Origin: Candidatus Dojkabacteria bacterium
GTDB lineage: Bacteria > Patescibacteriota > Dojkabacteria > B142 > JAFGFJ01
Length of the DNA stretch: 64,000 nt
Assembly: GCA_016931155.1 (NCBI GenBank)
Contig: JAFGFJ010000006.1
Coordinates: 472,652 to 536,651, forward strand
Direction of reading: 5' to 3'
Numbering within the stretch: position 1 is the stretch's first letter; each line of letters begins with the position of its first letter. The notes beneath the pieces were generated by a model. The model worked only from the letters and a program-made list of their open reading frames with translations. It made no database searches and was not told the origin of the DNA. The translations under genes and the position numbers were made by a program. Below are positions 6,346-60,411 of the stretch, one piece after another.

Positions 6346-8379
6346 CTACGAATCACGTATTATAGTCGACCCGGGAACCTCTCTTTCGATATGATTTAAT
6401 AATTCTTGATAACTTTTTATATGCGGATGAATAGAATCTCTTCTTATGTTCATCTCGTGGAAATATCTTGCTGCATATACCAGATCAGTGATGGCTGTGG
6501 AATCACACAGTGGGCTGCCTTGCAGGTCAGGGATTGACATGAACTGATGTACGGTTCTACGCAGGTAGTTTGCAATTGCATCTATTGAAGTCTTATCACT
6601 ATCAGAATCTTTTTTTGTATTATTTTTTATTGCGCAAACCCCACCTATAATATGGATTTTTTCTACTAAACCAAACAGTTGATAACTATACTCAGGAGGT
6701 ATTTTGAGAAGTGTATCGAGATTAAAATCAGACAAATTACCAGAGAAAAAGTCAAGCTCAAAGTGAAAGTCTTGATCTAAATTGGGTCTAATCAATTTTT
6801 CATAGATCTGAATTGCGATTTGGAGTCGAATTTTTTTGTCATTTTCTGTAAGACTATCAAGGAAGGATCCATAAAAAACCGAATTTTCTCCAAGATTAAA
6901 ATCAAATAATTCTGCAGGAGTGTAGTTAACTAAACCTTTTATGCCCAGTTTCTCATTCCCGAAAGTAAGAGCTTTTATTGCTTCGATATAAGTAGCAATA
7001 TATTTTGTATAGCTTTCTGTGCTAAATGTTTCTGGATACATATTTATAAAGGGTGTGGGGAATTTCCCCAGGTGCTCAATTGCATGACCAGATTCGTGCC
7101 AGAGTGAACGATAGTATCCTGGTCTTATAGTTTGAAGTGTAAGATCTATGCTTTCACCTTTGAAAGTGTTTTTTTCTGCATTTAGGCTTAATCTTTTTGG
7201 AAGGGTAAGCATTGCCAGCGGAAAAATTAATCCAAATTCCGTTTCAAGAAAATCTCTTGTTCCCAAAATATTGACTGAGGGGTCAACAGGGATGTCAATA
7301 TTTCTTGCTATCTTTGGTATTACTGTTCTTAATTCTTCTGTATAATTTTCCGGCTCAATTTTGGTATTAGAAAATATCTCATATAATCCTCTTATTTGTT
7401 CATCATCTGATCTGGAAGGATTTTCTCCAGTAGATATTAAAGTATATAACATGTCTGGCATTGCTATCATCCGGACAAAGGGAAGTTGAGACAATCCTAG
7501 TTTTTCTGCAAATGATTGAATAGATGTGTGGAGTTCTGAGAGTAGTGATAATTTCTCAGGACTAATCTGACTGACAAATTCAGAAGTTGGGGCTCTGTTT
7601 TCCTCAAGGGTTTTTGTGGTCGCCTCTGTTTGTAATGCTGGATCATTGGTGTTTTCATTTGGGTGTCTTGTAACTGGTTCATTTGGTTGTTCAGTACTCC
7701 CGCTATCACCTTTTGAAGGTATAAGATTAGTCCCTACCCCTGTGGCTCCTAGTGTAATACAAAAAAAAACTATTTTTTTGAGAACATTTCTTCTGTTTCT
7801 TTCGTGCGGTAACAGACTGTTATCTTTGATTTTTTTTCTTGCATTTTTTGCCAGTTCTTTTGTTCGTTTATCTTTTGCATAAGACTCCAATAGTTCAAGT
7901 CTAACAACGTATTGCAGTTGATCAGTATTGTGCCTTCCATCAAACGGTCGATTTCTTTGATTGTCTTTAGAAGGATCAGTTTTCAATGCACCCTCAGTTA
8001 GAGCTTTGATCAATTCCTTGTTACTCAACGGTTCATATCCTAATGTTTCTGCTGATCTTTTTACTTCTGTAATTGTTTTGAGCATTGCAGTAGATGTTTC
8101 TCTATCAAGTACGATTTTTTCAAGATCCAGGAGGGAAAGAGTATGAACAGTCAATAAAATGTCTTCACTGTTTTTTTCATCGTAATAGTAGGCATTATCA
8201 ATTCTTTCTAAAATGTGTTCAATGAAATGAGTGAGTCTTATGGGGTCAGCATTCAAGTACCTTCCTTTTATTGGATTAGTTGCTATCCCAGAGTCACCGC
8301 TGAAGAATATGTCACCAAACGTAAAATCTGGGGAATACATGGTTGCAGAAGCACTTTCTGTTTTATCTGGTAAGACCAT
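6346..8379 (-). CDS. large hypothetical membrane protein with a C-terminal HExxH zinc-metallopeptidase-like domain
   Basis: 677 aa; single TM (IVFFCITLGATGVGTNLI) around residue 200, low-complexity linker, then YRSLWHESGHAIEHLGKF (HExxH). Confidence 0.6.
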   Translation of the reverse strand: MVLPDKTESASATMYSPDFTFGDIFFSGDSGIATNPIKGRYLNADPIRLTHFIEHILERIDNAYYYDEKNSEDILLTVHTLSLLDLEKIVLDRETSTAMLKTITEVKRSAETLGYEPLSNKELIKALTEGALKTDPSKDNQRNRPFDGRHNTDQLQYVVRLELLESYAKDKRTKELAKNARKKIKDNSLLPHERNRRNVLKKIVFFCITLGATGVGTNLIPSKGDSGSTEQPNEPVTRHPNENTNDPALQTEATTKTLEENRAPTSEFVSQISPEKLSLLSELHTSIQSFAEKLGLSQLPFVRMIAMPDMLYTLISTGENPSRSDDEQIRGLYEIFSNTKIEPENYTEELRTVIPKIARNIDIPVDPSVNILGTRDFLETEFGLIFPLAMLTLPKRLSLNAEKNTFKGESIDLTLQTIRPGYYRSLWHESGHAIEHLGKFPTPFINMYPETFSTESYTKYIATYIEAIKALTFGNEKLGIKGLVNYTPAELFDFNLGENSVFYGSFLDSLTENDKKIRLQIAIQIYEKLIRPNLDQDFHFELDFFSGNLSDFNLDTLLKIPPEYSYQLFGLVEKIHIIGGVCAIKNNTKKDSDSDKTSIDAIANYLRRTVHQFMSIPDLQGSPLCDSTAITDLVYAARYFHEMNIRRDSIHPHIKSYQELLNHIEREVPGSTIIRDS

Positions 8380-9907: not shown

Positions 9908-11743
9908 TTAGGTAGAGAAATCTCCTAAGGTCGGATCTGCTGTTTCAATGAGATCTTTTGACTTCATTATTATTGAGTCTGTCTGGAGACCTGCATTAAA
10001 AACTGCTCTTTCCTCATCCAGTATTTTTTTGTCAAAATAAGTCTGAATTCCGAGAAGGTTGCCGAAAGGTGGAACTCCTCCGATCATCAGCCCAAAACTT
10101 TCTTTAATTTTCTCGGGTCTTTCAAACTCCAGTTGTTCACCTGTTTGCTCCGCTATGGCCTTCATATCAATTTTCATGTGGCTTGGTATGCAGACCATAT
10201 AGTTTTCTTCTGTCTTTTTTCCTTTTAAAATTATTGCTTTGATTCCTTCTTCCATTTTCGTTCCTCTGATTTTTGAAGAATCTTCAGAAGTAGGGGTCGG
10301 TTCATGAATGAGGTGTTTGAATTCTCTACCTTCTTTTGTAAGCCTTTGTTTAATTGCTTCAACCATTTTTTCTCCTCCAAGTACCGGTTTTATCTTTATC
10401 TTTACTGCGGCAATTCTTTTCATGTCGGAAGGGAAGAGTGTCGCCTCGCGGATATTTTCAAGCCCAAGAAATTGCTTGGTAAATCTCTCCATTCCAAGTC
10501 CAAAGCCACCGTGAGGAGGCATGCCAAATTTAAAAATGCTCAAGTAATCGGTAAAATCCTGCGGATCAAGACCCTTTAGTTTCAGGCTTTCTACAAGCTC
10601 CTCATATTTATCAATTCTTCGACCGCCACTTGTGACTTCCGCTCCGTTACAGAGAAGATCAGCGTAGTCAGTAATTTCTGGATTCTTCTCATTTGGTCTT
10701 GCATAAAAAGCTACCTTCTTCCGGGGGAAATGAGTGACGAAAACAAAATCACAGCCGGCAGTTTCTTTAGCGTATGTTGATAATTCCTTCTCTGCGTCAG
10801 GTGTGAGATCATCTTCTCTCCTGATATCGGTCTTAGTCCTTTTATAAAAAATTTCTTGTGCCTCTTCCAGTGTTATTCTTGGTATTTTTGTAGACTCAGG
10901 GAGGTCTGCTACATTTCCAAAATATTTAAGTTCGCAGGCACATTCTTTCTTTATGGTTTTTACTATATATTTCATTATTTTTTCTTCCCAATCCAGGATT
11001 GTTTCAAGTCCGTCAATGAAGCCCATCTCAAATTCACACTGTGTGGCTTCAGTTATATGTCTCACTGTATTTGACTTCTCGGCTCGATAACACTTCATAA
11101 GAGCGAATGTGCGCTCAAAAACTCCGACCATTACCTGTTTGTAAAGCTGGCTTGACTGGGACAGTTTGGCAGAATGCCCGAAGTAGTCAACGGTAAAAAG
11201 TTCTGCTCCCCCTTCGCTTGAGGCACCGATTATTGTAGGTCCGAAATATTCGGTAAAACCGTTTTGTGTTAAAAATTCTCTGTACGCTTTCAGAAATACT
11301 GCCTGTATTTTGAAAATTGCTATTTCCCTTTCGTTTCGAAGGGCTATTGGTCTGTTCTCAAGGATTGTATCCAGGTTCGCCCGTATTTCTTTTTTATTTA
11401 TTTCAATGGGCGGGACTTCTGTAACTGGAACTTCTATGGTAATTTTAGGATCGACGACTTCAACACCAATCTCTGTTTGGTCGGATTTTTGAACCTTTCC
11501 TTCAACAGTAAGGATTGACCCAGTTTCTAGATCTTTAATTTTTTTAATTTCCTCTTTGTCTGAGACAACTATCTGAATGAACCCGCCTCTATCACGAAGC
11601 ACAAGGAAGTTAATTGTTCCAAGAAGACGAAGTGTGTGGAGCCAGCCTTTGAGTAGTATCTTTTTGCCGACTTGTTTGGTTGCTTCTGATGAGATTGTAC
11701 GTTCTGTTTTTGTCATTGGATGATGATAGTATTTTTCTTTCAT
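9908..11743 (-). CDS. aspS: aspartyl-tRNA synthetase (archaeal/eukaryotic-type class IIb) fused to a C-terminal YbaK/ProX-like deacylase domain
   Basis: N-terminal OB anticodon-binding fold, motif 2 YRAEKSNTVRHITEATQCEFEMGF, motif 3 GMPPHGGFGLGMERF. About 170 extra C-terminal residues (IILKGKK...VCIPSHMKIDMKAIAEQTG...GLMIGGVPPFG...) follow the YbaK pattern. Confidence 0.85.
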   Translation of the reverse strand: MKEKYYHHPMTKTERTISSEATKQVGKKILLKGWLHTLRLLGTINFLVLRDRGGFIQIVVSDKEEIKKIKDLETGSILTVEGKVQKSDQTEIGVEVVDPKITIEVPVTEVPPIEINKKEIRANLDTILENRPIALRNEREIAIFKIQAVFLKAYREFLTQNGFTEYFGPTIIGASSEGGAELFTVDYFGHSAKLSQSSQLYKQVMVGVFERTFALMKCYRAEKSNTVRHITEATQCEFEMGFIDGLETILDWEEKIMKYIVKTIKKECACELKYFGNVADLPESTKIPRITLEEAQEIFYKRTKTDIRREDDLTPDAEKELSTYAKETAGCDFVFVTHFPRKKVAFYARPNEKNPEITDYADLLCNGAEVTSGGRRIDKYEELVESLKLKGLDPQDFTDYLSIFKFGMPPHGGFGLGMERFTKQFLGLENIREATLFPSDMKRIAAVKIKIKPVLGGEKMVEAIKQRLTKEGREFKHLIHEPTPTSEDSSKIRGTKMEEGIKAIILKGKKTEENYMVCIPSHMKIDMKAIAEQTGEQLEFERPEKIKESFGLMIGGVPPFGNLLGIQTYFDKKILDEERAVFNAGLQTDSIIMKSKDLIETADPTLGDFST

Positions 11744-11963: not shown

Positions 11964-12998
11964 CTATTCCAATAGTTTGTCTGCAAGTTTTGTTGGTGAG
12001 AAATTTCTCGAGTCTAAACCAAAACTCAAGCGTACAATAAATGTTCCTAGTTGTGGGGTAGATAATCCTAATTGCTTATAGTTTCTTATTGCTTCACTAT
12101 TTGCTCCGCCACTTCCATTTGTGATGTATTTAGTAACAAGTTCTTTTACGTAATCCATATTCATGGCCTTAAATCGGGTATTATCTTCCTCAAGAAGATT
12201 AAGCCAGAGACTGCAAATTGTTTGATTGAGTATTCTGCTTAGAATAGGGTTATTGCATGTTGCGAGGAATTTGTGTTCACTTACTTCATCTCTATAATCT
12301 TTAGCCACGCTTTCTGGATAGGTTTTATAGTACTCAATCATTACTTCATTAATGGTACCTTTTAATAATTGCTCACCTGATGTGGCGATATTATCAATAG
12401 TGAGTTCATTGTCAATAGTCTTGAGGCTGAGAATATCCAAGATCAGAGTGTCGATAAGATCAGAGCAACGAATAGGCAGCTGAACCTCATCCTCGATTTG
12501 GTCAAAAGTGTAATAATTACTCATCAATAAGGCGATACCTCTTTGTATTGTTCTTTTATAGTCAGGTAAATCTAAATCATTTCTTTCAGCGTATTCTACT
12601 AAGCATGCACAGTTGTATCTGTTTCTGATATCAGGGAAGTTGGCTGAAATGGGTTTTATCTCTTCCTTCAATGGTGTGCCTGGGCAAGAGCCTCTTAAAA
12701 CTGAAAAGTAATTATCAATTTGATTTAATGAAATTTCTACTGAATATCCCATTTGTCTGAAACTTTCTTCAAGGATTGTGGCTATCTCAGCGGTGGATTT
12801 ATTTATCAGTCCACTACTCTGCGCAAACTGAGATAAAATAAAGGTGTCGAATGGGGTAACCACAAAATCCTCAGGTGGTGTAAAATTATTTGACTCATAC
12901 ACCAGTCTAATTGTATTTTGATCAGTTCGTGCATTCGGTCCTATGACTAAATCCGCAACTGCTGCTCTTGAAATAATTCCTTCTGCTCTAGTTGGCAT
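11964..12998 (-). CDS. hypothetical protein
   Basis: 344-aa ORF; no motif recognised. Confidence 0.5.
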   Translation of the reverse strand: MPTRAEGIISRAAVADLVIGPNARTDQNTIRLVYESNNFTPPEDFVVTPFDTFILSQFAQSSGLINKSTAEIATILEESFRQMGYSVEISLNQIDNYFSVLRGSCPGTPLKEEIKPISANFPDIRNRYNCACLVEYAERNDLDLPDYKRTIQRGIALLMSNYYTFDQIEDEVQLPIRCSDLIDTLILDILSLKTIDNELTIDNIATSGEQLLKGTINEVMIEYYKTYPESVAKDYRDEVSEHKFLATCNNPILSRILNQTICSLWLNLLEEDNTRFKAMNMDYVKELVTKYITNGSGGANSEAIRNYKQLGLSTPQLGTFIVRLSFGLDSRNFSPTKLADKLLE

Positions 12999-41553: not shown

Positions 41554-43350
41554 ATGCCGAAAAACCTTGCCATAAAACCAGAGCTTACTCCAAATGCGCT
41601 CTTCATTGCTGAAAAGAGGTATTTTAAGCTGGGAAAGGACGGGAAACCTGAAGAAAATCCTTCTCAAATGTTTAGACGTGTTTCGAAGTTTATTGCTTCT
41701 GCGGAAAATAAACTCAACGATAAGAAAAAAGGCTACAAGAAACCTGCAGCAAAAAGACTAAAGGAGATAGAGGATTCATTTTATGAGATTCAGTCAAATT
41801 TGGAATTTCTACAAGGAATGACTCTTCTTGATAGAGGAAAAGAAGATCTGGTTGCTGCCTGTTATGTTATGCCAATTAAGGATTCTCTTGAATCGATCTA
41901 TGGTACTCTTGCAAATACTGTTACTTTGCACAGACGGGGAGCGGGAGTAGGTTATGATTTTTCTGAGATCAGACCGGAAGGGACGATTATAAATTCGACC
42001 GGGAAAGAGGCAAGCGGTCCGATTTCATTTATGAGGCTCTATGATTTTTCCTCGGAGGTTATTATGAATCGCGGATCGGTCAGACATGCGGGTCATATGG
42101 GAATTTTGAGAATTGATCACCCTGATATAGAAAAATTTATCACGGCAAAAGAAGATTATACTCAGCTTACAAATTTCAACATTTCCATAGCAATTACGGA
42201 TGAGTTTGTTAAGGCTCTGCGAAAAGGCGGGAAATACAAGCTTGTTCACGATGGGAAGCCTTATGGAGAAGCTAACGCCAGGGAAATGCTTAGAAAAATT
42301 ACAGAAAGTATTCACCGAAGCGGTGAGCCAGGATTTATATTTATTGATGAAGTAAACAGGTTTAATCCTACTCTCAATGTTGGTAAGATGACTGCTACAA
42401 ATCAATGCGGAGAACAGCCGCTTCTGCCGTATGAGGCCTGTAATATAGGATCTATTATTTTGAATAGATTTGTAGTTCCGGAAGGTGATGGTGGTGATAC
42501 AGGAGCAAAGAAGCCGGAGGACAGGATAAATTGGGAACGTCTGGAATATGTAGTAAAAGTTGCTGTCAGATTTTTGGACAACACCATTACAGTTGCAAAT
42601 CACTTACTTCCGGAAATTGAAAAGATTGTTATGTACGGGAATAGAAAGATCGGACTTGGTGTTATGGGCTGGGCTGACCTCCTTTATGAACTAAAACTGC
42701 CATATAACTCAGAAGAAGCTCTGGATTTAGCTGAGGGAGTTATGAAATTTATCGAAAAGACAGGACACGAAGCGTCACAGGAATTGGGTATTGAAAAAGG
42801 CGACTTTGGTAATTTCAAGGGAAGTAGGTGGGATAAGAAAGGCTATAAGCATATGAGAAATGCCACCGTAACTACAATTGCACCAAATGGCACTACGAGT
42901 CTGCTGGCTGAAGTTAGTGGTGGGATTGAACCGGTTTTCGCTCTTGGCTATGTGAGGAAAAACATGGAAACAGTTGGGGAAAATGTGGAAATGCTTTATG
43001 TAAATTCTGGACTGGAAAGAGCACTCAAAGATAAGTGGCTTTATTCGAAAGATTTGATGGCCAAAATTGCGGGGAAGGGAACTCTGGAAGGTTTTACTGA
43101 AATCCCTGATGAGCTTAAAAAGGTGTTTGTAACTTCTTACGATATAAGTTCAGAGTGGCATTTGAGGATGCAGGCCGCATTCCAAAAATACACAGATAAT
43201 GCCGTTTCGAAAACTATTAACCTGCCGGAAAGCGCAAAAATAGAGGATATCGAAAAAGCTTTTATTCTTGCGACCGAACTTCACCTGAAGGGTCTAACTA
43301 TATACAGGGACAAAAGCAGGGACAAGCAAGTACTAAATTTGAATAAATGA
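41554..43350 (+). CDS. nrdJ: class II (adenosylcobalamin-dependent) ribonucleotide reductase catalytic core, short form without C-terminal redox tail
   Basis: AACYVMP (C225 equivalent), [17 protein letters not shown] (thiyl Cys, Glu, C462 equivalent), TIAPNGTTS finger loop; 598 aa. Confidence 0.9.
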   Translation: MPKNLAIKPELTPNALFIAEKRYFKLGKDGKPEENPSQMFRRVSKFIASAENKLNDKKKGYKKPAAKRLKEIEDSFYEIQSNLEFLQGMTLLDRGKEDLVAACYVMPIKDSLESIYGTLANTVTLHRRGAGVGYDFSEIRPEGTIINSTGKEASGPISFMRLYDFSSEVIMNRGSVRHAGHMGILRIDHPDIEKFITAKEDYTQLTNFNISIAITDEFVKALRKGGKYKLVHDGKPYGEANAREMLRKITESIHRSGEPGFIFIDEVNRFNPTLNVGKMTATNQCGEQPLLPYEACNIGSIILNRFVVPEGDGGDTGAKKPEDRINWERLEYVVKVAVRFLDNTITVANHLLPEIEKIVMYGNRKIGLGVMGWADLLYELKLPYNSEEALDLAEGVMKFIEKTGHEASQELGIEKGDFGNFKGSRWDKKGYKHMRNATVTTIAPNGTTSLLAEVSGGIEPVFALGYVRKNMETVGENVEMLYVNSGLERALKDKWLYSKDLMAKIAGKGTLEGFTEIPDELKKVFVTSYDISSEWHLRMQAAFQKYTDNAVSKTINLPESAKIEDIEKAFILATELHLKGLTIYRDKSRDKQVLNLNK

Positions 43351-43568: not shown

Positions 43569-46500
43569 ATGAGAAAAGGAGGAAAAACATCTTCAGTAGA
43601 TGATAAACTCCCCGCAGTTTACACTGAAGGCTCGGTTCAGCTTCTGAGAAAAAGATTTCTTAAGACCGATGATGAAGGTATACCAATAGAAACCCCTGGA
43701 GATATGTTTGCTAGAGTTGCTGAAGGTGTTGCAAAAGGGGATCTGGTCTTTAATAAGGGCAAGAAGGAAGCCAAGAAAACAGAGGCAGAGTTTTTTGACA
43801 TGATTTACAATCTTCGCTTCATACCCAATTCTCCAACTCTTCTGAATGTCGGGAGAAACAACAAAAACTTTGCGGCCTGTTTTGTACTGCCTATAGCGGA
43901 TTCTCTCTCTGAAATTTATTCGACTCTAAATGAAGCAGTTAATGTTCAGTGGAAAGGCGGGGGAACGGGTTTTAATTTTTCGCCAATAAGACCGAAAGGC
44001 GACATGGCAGGAGGGATTCCAGATGTTGCGGCAGGACCTATTCACTACATAAAGACCTTCTCGACAGCGATGATGGGTGTGAGGCAGTCCGGTAAAAGGG
44101 GAGGCGGAAATATGGCAATACTCAATGTGGATCATCCGGATATTTTGGAGTTTATACATCTCAAAGAGCAGGACAGAACGATAATGAATTTCAATATTTC
44201 TGTTGGAATTACCAATATATTTATGAAAGCTCTTCAGGAGGATACTACATATGATCTGGTAAATCCTCGAAATAATGAGGTTGCCGGGCAGTTGAGTGCA
44301 CGACAGGTATTTGACGAAATTGTTCAGCTTGCTCACAAGACAGGTGATCCCGGTCTTGCTTTCATAGATAATATTGAAGCTGACAACAAAACTCCACTTG
44401 TAGGGAAGATGGATGCTACAAACCCTTGCGGCGAACAGCCTCTTCTTCCTTATGAGTCGTGTAATCTTGGGGCAGTAAACCTCAGGGTAATGTTTGATCA
44501 GAAGAAGAACATACTTAACTGGGATCTTCTTAAAAAAACAATTCATACAGGTGTTCATTTTCTGGATAATATTGTTGAAATAAACAATTATCCGCTGGAA
44601 AAAATAGAGAAAGTTACAAAGCATACAAACAGAAAGATTGGTTTGGGACTAATGGGATTTGCTGACCTGCTTATGATGATGGAGATTCCCTATAACTCTG
44701 AAAAAGCCTATAAATTTGCTGAAAAATTGATAAAATTTATTGAAGATGAAGCAATTAAGGAGTCGATCAGGCTTGCGAAAAAGCGTGGAGTTTTTCCAGC
44801 ATACAGTGGAAGTGTATGGGAGAAAAGGAAGCTCCCTGTAAGAAATGCTACTCTCACAACAATTGCTCCAAACGGTAACACAAGTCTTATTGGGGGGTCT
44901 GTTGGGGGTATTGAGCCATCATATGCTCTTGCATACAAAGTAGGAGGTGTTGAGGATAGAAGCTACAGAGCTACAGAGGTTATATTCAACGTATCGGAAG
45001 GGTTCAAGCATCTTGCTAAAAAACACGGATTTTACAAACCTGAGGTAATTGAAAAAATAGTTAATGGAGTGCCTGTTTCTGCTATTAAAGAAATTCCGGA
45101 AGGTGTTAAAAAAGTGCTTGTAACGGCTCTTGATATCTCACCGATGGATCACTTAAAAATGCAGGCAGCTTTTCAGAAGAATGTTGATAATGCAATTTCC
45201 AAGACAATAAATTTTCCGAATGATTCAACTCCGATGGATATAAAGAAAGTCTACATTGAAGCGTACAGGCTTGGTCTTAAGGGTGTAACAATTTATCGGG
45301 ATGGGAGCAAAAGCGGGCAGACACTCGTTTCGAGCGACAACAAAGGAAAATTGAATGTGGAAGGGACAGGTGGAGAAAAATCCGGCAACGAATCAGATGG
45401 GATGAAAATGGAACCTGCTCCTATTCTTACGTCAAATGCACTTCAGGTTCTTGAGAAAAGAGCTTTAAAGAAAAGCGAAAATGGAGAAATAATTGAAACT
45501 CCCGAGGAGCTTTGGAGAAGAATCGCAAAACATGTTGCGAAAGCTGAGAAGAAGGATAAGCAAAAAGAATGGGAAGGGAATTTTTTTACGGTTTTTAATT
45601 CTGCTGAATTTTTAAGCGGGGGTGCGCTGATTTATGCTGGTCTCGGGGAACGTGCGATTCTTTCGAAATGTCTTGTTCTACCTGTTGACGACTCGATAGG
45701 TAGTATTTTCGAGAGTCTTAATATGAATATTGAAATGCTTAAACGAGGTGTTGGTACAGGGTTTAATTTTTCAAAGATCAGGTCATCTTATGCTGTTGTG
45801 AAAACGACTGGAGAGCATGCAGCAGGACCTATTAAATATCTGAAACTCTATGATAGTGCACAAGACACTCTTACCGGTCGTGGTGGTAGAGGGCTTGGCT
45901 CGATGGCGATACTTAATGTGGATCACCCCAATATTGAGGAGTTTGTAAATTTGAAGGACGATCTAAGTGCGATCCATCATTACAATATTTCTGTTGGTGT
46001 GAGCGACAAATTTATGAAAGCGGTTAAAAGTAATGCAAAGTGGGATCTGGTAGATCCACATGATGGGAATGTTTATAAAACGATTAAGGCAAAGGAGCTT
46101 TTTAATTCGATAGCAAAGCATGCGTGGTTGAGTGGTGATCCTGGAATCTTTTTCCTGGATACAGCTGAAAAGGGGAATACAACTCCTGCTCTTGGAAAGA
46201 TGGATGCTACAAATCCTTGCGGTGAGCAACCCCTTATCCCCTATGAAACCTGTAATCTCGGCAATATTGATATTTCAAAAATGATAAAGGGAAATCCATA
46301 TGCACTGGATCCAGACCTTTTGGATGCTCCTTTCAAGGAGAAGATGAGATTTGTGAATTGGGAAAGACTGGCAGAGGTTACACGTATTGGAGTGAGATAC
46401 CTTGACGATATTATTGATGTAAACACTTATCCTATAAAGGAGATTGAGGTGATGACTAAAAAGACTAGAAATGTAGGGTTGGGAATAATGGGGCTTGCTG

Positions 46501-47933
46501 ACTTCTTCATAAAACTTGGTATCCCATACGAAAGTGATGAAGCAGTAAAGGCATCAGAAGAGGTAATGAAATTTATTCAAAGTGAGGCACATAAATATTC
46601 TGAAGCTTTGGGGAAAGAGAAGGGAAATTTCCCGGCTTTTAAAGATAGCACATGGAGGAAGAAAGGAAAGAAATACATGAGAAATACAAGGACAACGACT
46701 ATTGCTCCAACAGGTACAATTGCAATTGTTGCAAACTGTAATCCGGGGATTGAGCCTGTATTTGCTCTTGGATATCGAAGAAAGAACTCGATGGGGGGGA
46801 CGGATCAGTTGGTGATTGAACCTTTGTTTATTGAGGTTGCAATGCAAAGAGGTTTTTACTCAGATGAACTTATTAATGATATAGCAGACGGAAAACACTT
46901 AAGTGAAATTAAAGAAAAATATAATATTCCTGATGATGTGGTTAAGGTTTTTGTCACGACTCATGAAATAGATCCAAAGCGGCATGTACATATCCAATCG
47001 GCTTTCCAGAAATACGTTGATAGTGCTGTTTCAAAAACTATCAATTTGCCAAACTCTGCAACTCCTGAGGACATAGAAAGGGTTTATGCACTTGCATATG
47101 ATCTCGGCTGTAAGGGAATTACTGTATTTAGAGATGGAAGTAAAGATCCGGCTCTCCAGGTGGGGGTTGGTGTAAGAGATAATTCAGCTTCTGACTTTCC
47201 AGCAGATAGGCAAAGTGGCGAACAGTCTGGTAAACAGGATGGCACAAGAGAGACCTTTGAGCCAAGGGATCGCGCAATGGTAACAAGAGGTACTACTACT
47301 AAACTCAAGACAGAACAGGGAAGCCTTTTCGTGACTATAAATGAGGATGAAAAAGGAATTGTGGAGGTGTTTCTGGTGCTTGGAAAGAGCGGAAGCTTTA
47401 CTACAGGTTATACAGAGGCTATTGGAAGACTTGTCTCTATGTCTCTGAGAAGTGGTATAAAGGTGGAGAATATAATTGAACAGTTAAAAGGAATAAGAAC
47501 TTCCATGCCTACAATGAACAAAGGTATGATAATTTACTCTGTACCTGATGCTGTTGCCAAAGTGCTTGAGCAGTATGTTGAGAATAAGAAAGGGCAGGTG
47601 GAAATGTTTGAAGCTCAGCCTGCATCTGTAGCTGATGTAAAAGATGCGCCGGAATCCAGCTCTGTAAAATCTGTCCCTGAATCTCCCGAGACGGAAACAG
47701 AAGAGGAGGAGAAGTCAGAAGATGAGGAGAAAAATGAACGACCCGCTAAAGAAATCACACCGAAGCTTGACGCAAAAATCAGTGACAAGGAATCAAACCA
47801 TGTTGACGGTAAGTTCTATAGCAAAAATAATGTAATGGGTGATTTACTGGAGTGTCCGGAATGTGGTGGAGATCTGGAATATGCAGAAGGGTGTATTCTA
47901 TGTAGAAGTTGTGGGTATAGTAAATGCGGATAA
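43569..47933 (+). CDS. nrdJ: giant class II ribonucleotide reductase: two complete NrdJ catalytic cores fused in tandem, plus one C-terminal tail domain and a terminal CxxC...CxxC zinc ribbon
   Basis: Core A (~43569-45350): [33 protein letters not shown]. Core B (~45402-47150): [33 protein letters not shown]. Then [24 protein letters not shown] tail and ECPECGG...[13 protein letters not shown]. Cores are ~45-50% identical to each other and to the upstream nrdJ. Confidence 0.9.
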
Positions 47934-58929: not shown

Positions 58930-60411
58930 ATGAAGAAAGTATTTCCAATAATAATTGTTTTGTCGGCTGTGGTACTTGCAGTTGTAGCAGTTTTGGTTGG
59001 TCTAAGATTGAGACAGCCAGAAAGTACTTTGCCTGACTATATAATGGCTGAGGGTAATAATTGCTGTGGTCAGCCTGATTACGGGGTAGTATGTGACACT
59101 GACCAGAAGTTCATTGATGGCTATAATGCTTGTGTGAGTGGCGGTTGTGCTGCCTGCCGGGGAGGTGGTCCAGTTTGCGGAAATGGTCAATGTGAATCTG
59201 GTGAAACCAGTTCAAATTGCCCGGCGGACTGTGGCAGCACCTCATCAAGTAGTTCGTCAGGCGGAGCAGTCTGTGGTAATGGTCAATGTGAATCTGGGGA
59301 AAATGTCTCTAATTGTCCCGTGGATTGTGGAGGACTTGGTACTGGGATGACACAGTGCAACCAGATTGGGAATTGCTCTTATGAGACATGCCCGGATAGT
59401 GTCAGAGCGGATGGAGTAACTACAAATTGCTACCAGGAGGCAATTGCGGCTGGATGTTACAGATCTTTTTGTGGGGGTACTGAAGAGTGTAAATCGCCTG
59501 TGACTTTCATTTGCTACATGGATACAGCAGAGCAGGTGCTTGCGGCCGCGGCAAGGCAGGATGATTGTAGGCAAAATCCTCAGCCAGGAGCAAATCCACC
59601 ATCCAATATATGTGGATCTTTTCAGATAGATTGCAATGGAGGCGGCGATGGTACCGGTGGCTATGATACTTCCGGCTGTACACCATCCAGTTCTTCGTCA
59701 AGTTCCTCGTCAAGTTCAGGAGGTAGTAGTTCATCCAGTTCCTCATCAAGTTCCAGTAGCAGTTCTTCCAGTTCATCCAGCTCTTCAGGTGGAGAGGAAG
59801 AGATAGATGTTAACGTGACGAAAACTGCTTCCGAAGTATGCATTGAAGATCCAGGTATTTCAGTTGTTACCTACACTATTACTTTCTCAAATAATGGTGA
59901 ATCAGCAATTACTGTAGATATTATTGATACTCCTGATACCAGGATAATTTCCTATATAGATGTATTGACAATAAGTGATGGAGGTATACTCGATCCATCT
60001 GCCGGTCAAATAACTTGGGGTCAGATAGAAGTTGAAGCAGGTGGTGTGATCACGAGGACTTACGGAGCAAATATCCCTTCTTCTCTTTTTGGAGAAACAC
60101 TAATAAATGTAGTAATAGTAGAAGACTCTGAAACTCACGAGGAACTGGGAAGGGCGACAGCAGAAGTAATAACATGGTGTGAGCTTCCTAAAACTGCAAT
60201 ATTTTCTGATGCGATGGATAGAGTGATACTTGGTATGGTATTTGTCCTTGCTGGAATTCTTGTGTACAGGATGGATATGACTAATATTGCCCTTGATGCA
60301 TTTAGAAATATTGGTGGAGATAGATTTCTTGCTGTATTCAGTGAGAAAGAGAAGAAGAATTTAATAAAGAGGAGGATAAAGAATCTGGAAAAGAGGTCTC
60401 TCGCTAAATAA
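58930..60411 (+). CDS. cell-surface protein: signal/TM anchor, two CGNGQCESGE-x-SNCP-x-DCG Cys modules, ~45-residue poly-Ser linker, DUF11-like beta domain, C-terminal TM
   Basis: Read from translation; poly-Ser is encoded by the low-complexity AGTTC/TCATC repeat DNA at ~59690-59790. Confidence 0.7.
   Translation: MKKVFPIIIVLSAVVLAVVAVLVGLRLRQPESTLPDYIMAEGNNCCGQPDYGVVCDTDQKFIDGYNACVSGGCAACRGGGPVCGNGQCESGETSSNCPADCGSTSSSSSSGGAVCGNGQCESGENVSNCPVDCGGLGTGMTQCNQIGNCSYETCPDSVRADGVTTNCYQEAIAAGCYRSFCGGTEECKSPVTFICYMDTAEQVLAAAARQDDCRQNPQPGANPPSNICGSFQIDCNGGGDGTGGYDTSGCTPSSSSSSSSSSSGGSSSSSSSSSSSSSSSSSSSSSGGEEEIDVNVTKTASEVCIEDPGISVVTYTITFSNNGESAITVDIIDTPDTRIISYIDVLTISDGGILDPSAGQITWGQIEVEAGGVITRTYGANIPSSLFGETLINVVIVEDSETHEELGRATAEVITWCELPKTAIFSDAMDRVILGMVFVLAGILVYRMDMTNIALDAFRNIGGDRFLAVFSEKEKKNLIKRRIKNLEKRSLAK

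Follow-up and report, generated by a model that had tools for sequence, protein, structure and literature searches.

A YeaK-like putative deacylase domain appended to an aspartyl-tRNA synthetase in Candidatus Dojkabacteria and other lineages

About half of the aminoacyl-tRNA synthetases are known to carry editing domains, and we know of none on aspartyl-tRNA synthetase (AspRS) or on any class IIb enzyme. A 2024 review describes the deacylases of the INS/YbaK superfamily as proteins of a single domain, with the INS domain of prolyl-tRNA synthetase (ProRS) as the exception, and also mentions ProXp-ala proteins that are fused to ProRS or that carry a plant-specific C-terminal domain. The sole INS-superfamily deacylases acknowledged to stand in cis with a class II synthetase are the ProRS INS domain and, in Plasmodium and trypanosomatids, a ProXp-ala fused N-terminally to ProRS. 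Here we describe a gene from Candidatus Dojkabacteria, located at positions 9908..11743 (-) of a 64-kb stretch of contig JAFGFJ010000006.1 (the window, i.e., the whole stretch of DNA that was analysed), whose product joins an AspRS to a domain of this superfamily. As in the ProRS cases, a synthetic and a (here predicted) hydrolytic site lie on one polypeptide; however, the ProRS domains are positioned between motifs 2 and 3 or at the N-terminus and belong to an Ala-specific subfamily, whereas the domain described here is found at the C-terminus of an AspRS. Hence, what is new is AspRS as the partner and the subfamily of the domain, while a synthetase with an editing domain in cis is known.

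For the synthetase part, a described counterpart is AspRS2 of Thermus thermophilus (PDB 1n9w, 3kfu), an archaeal-type, non-discriminating enzyme known from the transamidosome, which stops at residue 422 and has no appended domain. For the appended part it is Escherichia coli YeaK (ProXp-ST1), a Ser/Thr-tRNA deacylase with broad tRNA specificity (two 2024 papers), which differs from the domain described here in being a 167-aa single-domain protein that acts in trans. A cis-fusion to an Asp/Asn-type synthetase had seemed unfamiliar in a preliminary description of the window, which was made from the DNA alone, and a literature search on YbaK/ProXp-type domains in connection with AspRS or with the carrier lineages likewise found no paper on it. 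The architecture is visible in public sequences and their precomputed Pfam hits, yet has apparently gone undiscussed.

One gene for a synthetase and an editing-type domain

The gene is a single uninterrupted open reading frame (ORF) of 611 amino acids, stop codon included, with neither a stop nor a frameshift at the junction between its two halves; a scan for promoters and terminators gave no signal above chance at this junction. Pfam profiles divide its product into an N-terminal OB-fold anticodon-binding domain (tRNA_anti-codon, residues 30-102, E 1.9e-13; 11438..11656 (-)), a class II catalytic core of the D/K/N type (tRNA-synt_2, residues 125-439, E 1.5e-73; 10427..11371 (-)) in which motif 3 reads GMPPHGGFGLGMERF (residues 407-421), and a C-terminal editing domain of the INS/YbaK superfamily (residues ~456-611; 9911..10378 (-)). 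The last of these is matched by tRNA_edit (PF04073) at residues 480-600 (9944-10306) with an E-value of 4.8e-23 and 82 bits against a cut-off of 25.5, a score far above chance, and the match is complete (model positions 1-122 of 123). Between core and editing domain lies a linker (residues ~440-455; 10379..10426 (-)) that starts just before the position where T. thermophilus AspRS2 terminates and that is modeled with lower confidence (predicted local distance difference test, pLDDT, 56-79). The structure model was obtained with AlphaFold2 from an alignment; a single-sequence run (pLDDT 34.8) was unusable.

The preliminary description had placed a YbaK/ProX-like deacylase domain in the part of the protein that follows motif 3 (9908-10420, i.e., residues ~442-611), and had envisaged a frameshift and a separate gene as one way in which this could fail. 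The profile search of this C-terminal region bears out a covalently joined and complete domain of the YbaK superfamily, and a chimera, an assembly or frameshift artefact and a separate gene are ruled out, since 80 independent genome loci and 120 protein clusters show the same arrangement in one ORF. The editing domain occurs once only in the window.

Two start codons come into question: the ATG at 11743 yields the 611-aa form, and the NCBI model, of 602 aa, begins with the ATG at 11716 (M10); no clear ribosome-binding site lies ahead of either ATG. The first ATG adds nine residues, MKEKYYHHP (11716-11743 (-)), which are absent from homologues.

A strictly conserved lysine and a GXXXP loop are the hallmarks of the INS superfamily (2024 paper). 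Both are present in the appended domain at positions confirmed by translation: Lys502 (10238..10240 (-)) aligns with the catalytic lysines of YbaK (K46) and YeaK (K52), and the loop is G555-G-V-P-P559 (10067..10081 (-)). Together with the PF04073 score and the YbaK fold, these features place the domain in the INS/YbaK superfamily.

YbaK in the narrow sense, the Cys-tRNAPro deacylase, is ruled out by sub-threshold scores (TIGR00011, 48 bits against a cut-off of 153.25; NF007951, 12.5 bits against 243). A role as ProXp-ala in Pro editing was rejected as well. In PDB searches, run both with the single sequence and with the domain profile, 3op6, 2cx5, E. coli YbaK and Atu3699 all ranked above ProXp-ala, which the domain profile matched with an E-value of only 2.4e-3 (5vxb). 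Moreover, one related Dojkabacteria locus in which an asparaginyl-tRNA synthetase (AsnRS) gene follows the fused gene also encodes a ProRS with an INS domain of its own, and the appended domain is therefore not needed for Ala-tRNAPro editing. Hence, the superfamily assignment of the preliminary description stood, while its narrower YbaK/ProX wording did not.

The domain profile scores E. coli YeaK, whose sequence was taken from the E. coli K-12 genome, at 82.9 bits; the solved references reach at most 61 bits when scored alike and at most 63 in the PDB search, the best solved match being 3op6 from Legionella (2.3e-16). In BLASTP, the domain and YeaK align with an E-value of 1e-21, although at only 27% identity across 146 residues. 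A comparison by alignment column is more telling: H480, R493-G-T495, G500-x-K502-A, G555-x-x-P-P-F, F582-N583-x-G585, S590 and D597 are all present in YeaK, are kept at ~99-100% in the fused domains and are mostly kept in free-standing relatives. R493, T495, G500, F582, N583 and S590 are mostly absent from YbaK, 2cx5, 1wdv and 1vki. YbaK and the ProXp-x/ProX structures (2cx5, 1wdv) lack the signature formed by RGT, FNxG and S590, while the fused domain lacks the YbaK-specific residues. The uncharacterised Legionella pneumophila protein lpg1207 (3op6) shares GAMPPFGN and FNAG with the fused domain, but it is free-standing and has no RGT motif. By these comparisons, the closest characterised relative of the domain is E. 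coli YeaK/ProXp-ST1, with which it has in common the Pfam family, the catalytic lysine, the GxxPPF loop and the signature H...RGT...GxKA...FNxG...S. We refer to the domain as YeaK-like, a designation that stops short of proven ProXp-ST1 membership, as ProXp-ST2 and the still uncharacterised clusters ProXp-7/8/9 lie outside the comparison. Proteins of the YeaK family are free-standing and consist of a single domain, whereas the domain described here sits at the C-terminus of a 611-aa AspRS.

The N-terminal 440 residues are an AspRS of archaeal type that is probably non-discriminating. They score 478.3 bits with the NCBIfam equivalog NF003483 ('aspartate--tRNA(Asn) ligase'; cut-off 353) and fall marginally under the cut-off of TIGR00458 (366.2 bits against 368.4). 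Their best solved relative is the non-discriminating AspRS2 of T. thermophilus (2.8e-97), and Foldseek retrieved 3nel (1e-46) and 3kfu (template modeling score 0.93). The class IIb fold and motifs are present, and K202 and R376, which bind the side-chain carboxylate, are invariant. His36 aligns both with a His of the T. thermophilus enzyme and with Trp26 of the discriminating AspRS of Thermococcus kodakarensis; this is suggestive, though only suggestive, of a non-discriminating enzyme.

Two motifs of the body deviate from those of solved AspRS proteins. The signature at residues 196-203 reads QSSQLYKQ, and the canonical QSPQ is replaced by QS[S/A/N]Q in 121 of the 124 full-length members of the archaeal-type fused clade (residues 196-199), a Pro being found in 0/124. 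At residues 235-239, a conserved Asp next to motif 2 is changed to Glu ('QxEFEM'), again in 121/124; solved AspRS proteins read 'SIDSEM' or 'SLDVEM' there, and the bacterial-type fusions described below retain both QSPQ and the Asp. T. thermophilus AspRS2 likewise has QSPQ and 'SLDVEM', in contrast to the fused clade. These changes could alter the handling of the amino acid. The idea that the Glu is a sign of AsnRS-like specificity was dropped, since a Dojkabacterial AsnRS itself carries Asp at this position.

Distribution of the fusion and of its free-standing relatives

An NCBI entry from Candidatus Dojkabacteria, a lineage of the Candidate Phyla Radiation (CPR), matches the protein with 100% identity and is annotated merely as 'aspartate--tRNA(Asn) ligase'. 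Each of the best 120 database homologues (54-61% identity, ~595-625 aa) has the same three Pfam domains. A scan with one genome per species gave 167 relatives, the best 80 of which were inspected as loci; nearly all of these belong to Chlamydiota (Parachlamydiaceae, Rhabdochlamydiaceae and others), and two to Dojkabacteria. The domain is in the same ORF as AspRS sequence in 80/80 loci, and the ORF is full-length (~600 aa) wherever the contig permits, some loci being cut by contig ends or interrupted. At least 70 genomes of environmental Chlamydiota carry the fusion, including those of Parachlamydiaceae bacterium HS-T3 and of a Parachlamydia sp. (records labeled as cultured or named). Relative to the chlamydial homologues, the domain of the Dojkabacteria protein is 52-61% and its body 50-57% identical; the domain is conserved as strongly as the synthetase body, a pattern indicative of purifying selection. 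Six contigs labeled as Verrucomicrobia, Bdellovibrionales, delta proteobacterium or Legionellaceae (L020, L032, L044, L047, L060 and L067) also contain a chlamydia-like fused gene. These are probably mis-binned chlamydial contigs; otherwise, bacteria associated with amoebae would have exchanged the gene horizontally.

The fusion is confined neither to the genome under study nor to one type of synthetase. The archaeal-type AspRS carries the domain in Dojkabacteria, in Chlamydiota and in another CPR lineage. An exhaustive HMMER search with the domain alone retrieved 1518 relatives. The domain clade is also fused to further AspRS backbones: a bacterial-type AspRS of ~744 aa that contains the GAD insertion, in over 100 protein clusters that bear the names Candidatus Woesearchaeota or Nanoarchaeota, and a GAD-less bacterial-type AspRS of ~625 aa (P0125, P0149 and the Dojkabacteria isolate HKST-UBA11). 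In the latter isolate (locus L048, 2567-4468), the domain is 55% identical to that of the protein described here, and the body only 26%, which points either to a body swap or to a transfer of the domain inside one phylum. One CPR protein of 499 aa (P0170, KKU91974.1) consists of the OB domain, the first ~195 of 308 model positions of the catalytic core and the editing domain; either its AspRS body is truncated or degenerate and the deacylase attached to it intact, or the assembly is at fault.

K502 and the GXXXP loop are conserved at ~99-100% in 128 archaeal-type, 109 GAD-containing and four GAD-less bacterial-type fusions and in 176 free-standing relatives. Positions 514, 524 and 541 differ between the archaeal-type and the Woesearchaeota fusions. 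Among the best 150 of the domain relatives (representatives at 50% identity), 17 are AspRS fusions or fragments thereof, and no other synthetase occurs as a fusion partner. Apart from these and from free-standing proteins, the set contains only tandem copies of the domain and a single GmrSD_N fragment; P0143, P0235, P0226 and P0181 contain three or two tandem tRNA_edit domains or, in one case, GmrSD_N together with tRNA_edit. By this survey, the domain pairs with AspRS repeatedly and specifically.

The nearest relatives found by HMMER are fusions mixed with genuine free-standing proteins of 150-166 aa (46-53% identity), one of which is from Patescibacteria; four free-standing relatives were verified in their contigs as separate genes. 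Their neighbours are uninformative, and aspS is not adjacent to them. Close Woesearchaeota AspRS relatives without the domain exist as well. In a rough neighbour-joining tree, fused and free domains are interspersed. Judged from these sequences, and whatever the number of events, three AspRS bodies that are not orthologous to one another have either received the domain or retained it. We would give somewhat less than an even chance to the possibility that AspRS gained a YeaK-like deacylase in cis within three lineages that depend on hosts and have small genomes (CPR, environmental chlamydiae and DPANN), and that it probably did so on more than one occasion.

Possible role of the appended domain

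We tentatively favour, with confidence that stays a little below even, a bifunctional enzyme in which an active aminoacyl-tRNA deacylase of ~155 residues, belonging to the INS/YbaK superfamily and to a YeaK/ProXp-ST1-like clade, is tethered to the AspRS body. The short linker would keep the deacylase beside an enzyme that binds tRNAAsp, and probably also tRNAAsn, by its anticodon; in this position it would therefore most likely serve as a post-transfer editor on those tRNAs, hydrolysing non-cognate aminoacyl esters at their 3' ends. By analogy with YeaK, the residues removed would probably be small and polar, e.g., Ser or Thr, and Asp-tRNA would be spared. A proofreading role, which the preliminary description had suggested too, is what we infer for the domain. 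The architecture, the fold, the conserved catalytic residues, the signs of purifying selection and a recurrent pairing in which AspRS is the only synthetase partner are what the sequences show, whereas activity, preference for the tRNAs bound by AspRS and the amino acid removed belong to the inferred part.

Several points weigh against such an editor. AspRS is regarded as a non-editing enzyme, and to our knowledge no mischarging by it has been documented. The close free-standing relatives of the domain (46-53% identity) are encoded away from aspS and YeaK-type enzymes have a broad tRNA specificity (2024 paper), so that the domain could act in trans on other tRNAs. The existence of close Woesearchaeota AspRS proteins that lack the domain makes it dispensable in some genomes, and the putative Ser/Thr specificity derives from a single reference sequence, that of YeaK.

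These same relatives, which include a Patescibacteria protein and have no synthetase neighbour, the Woesearchaeota AspRS without the domain, and the action of ProXp-ST1 and ProXp-ST2 on many tRNAs (2024 paper) would suit a general trans-editing factor that is merely tethered: a broad Ser/Thr (or other) deacylase clearing the errors of AlaRS, ThrRS, LysRS, ValRS and IleRS, which in small genomes would gain nothing but co-expression, stability or dimerisation from being fused to AspRS. We regard this as unlikely, if well worth keeping in mind, since a neutral tether would be expected on varied partners and AspRS is the sole synthetase partner seen, on three backbones and in three lineages. Another possibility is a control of Asp/Asn tRNA identity, in which the domain would recognise Asp-tRNAAsn made by a non-discriminating AspRS, e.g., via the first base pair of the acceptor stem, and would either hydrolyse it, where a lineage has AsnRS, or retain it until it is passed on to the amidotransferase GatCAB. 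The non-discriminating type of the body, asnS directly downstream in two Dojkabacteria, gatC-gatA-gatB 4.5-5 kb downstream in two Woesearchaeota loci and the reading of acceptor-stem elements by superfamily members such as ProXp-ala (PMC3973320) are all in line with it. Nevertheless, we consider it improbable: hydrolysis of Asp-tRNAAsn would amount to a futile cycle in GatCAB-dependent lineages, the fusions share the YeaK signature and have no new acid-binding signature common to all of them (positions 514, 524 and 541 differ between the groups), and neither gatCAB nor asnS is encoded within the 64-kb window.

Appended tRNA-binding domains are common on synthetases, and 'oligo-nucleotide binding protein' is the name under which 3op6, a solved relative, was deposited; both would agree with a non-catalytic appendage, i.e., a former deacylase retained for binding of the tRNA acceptor end, protein interaction or dimerisation. 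We think this very improbable, because the catalytic lysine, the GXXXP loop and ~15 more residues shared with YeaK are conserved at ~99-100% in each fused group, which is unlike a degenerate enzyme. Hardly any credence is given by us to a surrogate of D-aminoacyl-tRNA deacylase (DTD) that would remove D-Asp from tRNAAsp in lineages without DTD. Transfer of a D-amino acid has been reported for several synthetases, AspRS among them, and accessory editing factors are frequently lost from reduced genomes; these are background arguments and no results of this analysis, and we know of no YbaK-fold enzyme that selects by chirality.

If the tethered deacylase does edit the products of AspRS, errors on tRNAAsp and tRNAAsn, whether a wrong amino acid attached by AspRS or Asp left on tRNAAsn, would be a real fidelity problem that is selected against, and a branch of trans-editing factors that is otherwise orphan would have its physiological client in AspRS. 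Such editing would bring to light a source of mistranslation that has gone unrecognised, would provide the large, uncharacterised group of YeaK-like proteins with a function, and would run counter to the textbook view of AspRS as a non-editing enzyme. The natural fusion may act as a 'Rosetta stone' that names the synthetase partner of a trans-editing factor, the pairing being repeated on three unrelated backbones in symbiotic or parasitic lineages that are unable to control their amino-acid pools. It makes the function of the large orphan YeaK-like group testable, and the protein is expected to be easy to express.

Gene neighbourhood and additional observations

In two related Dojkabacteria, a bona fide AsnRS gene follows the fused gene at a distance of 0.5-0.7 kb (L088, 9802-11597; L091, 12507-13799). 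The first copy scores 501 bits with NF003037 (cut-off 414), and the second is 72% identical to it; the linkage of asnS to the fused gene is missing in a third Dojkabacteria genome. A 155-aa hydrophobic ORF with no family match lies between the fused aspS and asnS in L088, and in the window mnmA holds the place that is taken by asnS in those two Dojkabacteria. In two divergent Woesearchaeota loci, a gatC-PPIase-gatA-gatB cluster is found 4.5-5 kb downstream of the fused gene (L089, 14737-18235; L090, 17005-21203), with the order gatC-PPIase-gatA-(PK_C)-gatB and thus with a peptidyl-prolyl isomerase (PPIase) gene between gatC and gatA; it is only in Woesearchaeota that gatCAB was seen near the fused gene. 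In the chlamydial loci, the fused gene follows pnp and precedes ftsH, a synteny of housekeeping genes.

The preliminary description had considered probable a non-discriminating AspRS that works together with an amidotransferase. The body is indeed probably of the non-discriminating type by its NF003483 score, its similarity to AspRS2 and its His36, whereas the amidotransferase context is not established: gatCAB and asnS were both absent from the 64-kb window, and asnS stands beside the fused gene in two related Dojkabacteria. An indirect Asn pathway is plausible in the archaeal carriers and, from general knowledge, in the chlamydial carriers as well; it is not established for the organism described here.

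The window further encodes a histidyl-tRNA synthetase, a class II lysyl-tRNA synthetase and MnmA. Neither Pfam nor NCBIfam gives a match for three large ORFs of 677, 344 and 493 aa (6346-8379 (-), 11964-12998 (-) and 58930-60411 (+)), and two of them flank the aspS-mnmA pair. Two adjacent genes for ribonucleotide reductase large subunits are located at 41554-43350 (+) and 43569-47933 (+). The product of the second comprises 1454 aa, with a barrel domain split into three matched stretches and a TSCPD domain, an arrangement that suggests one or more intein insertions or another large insertion.

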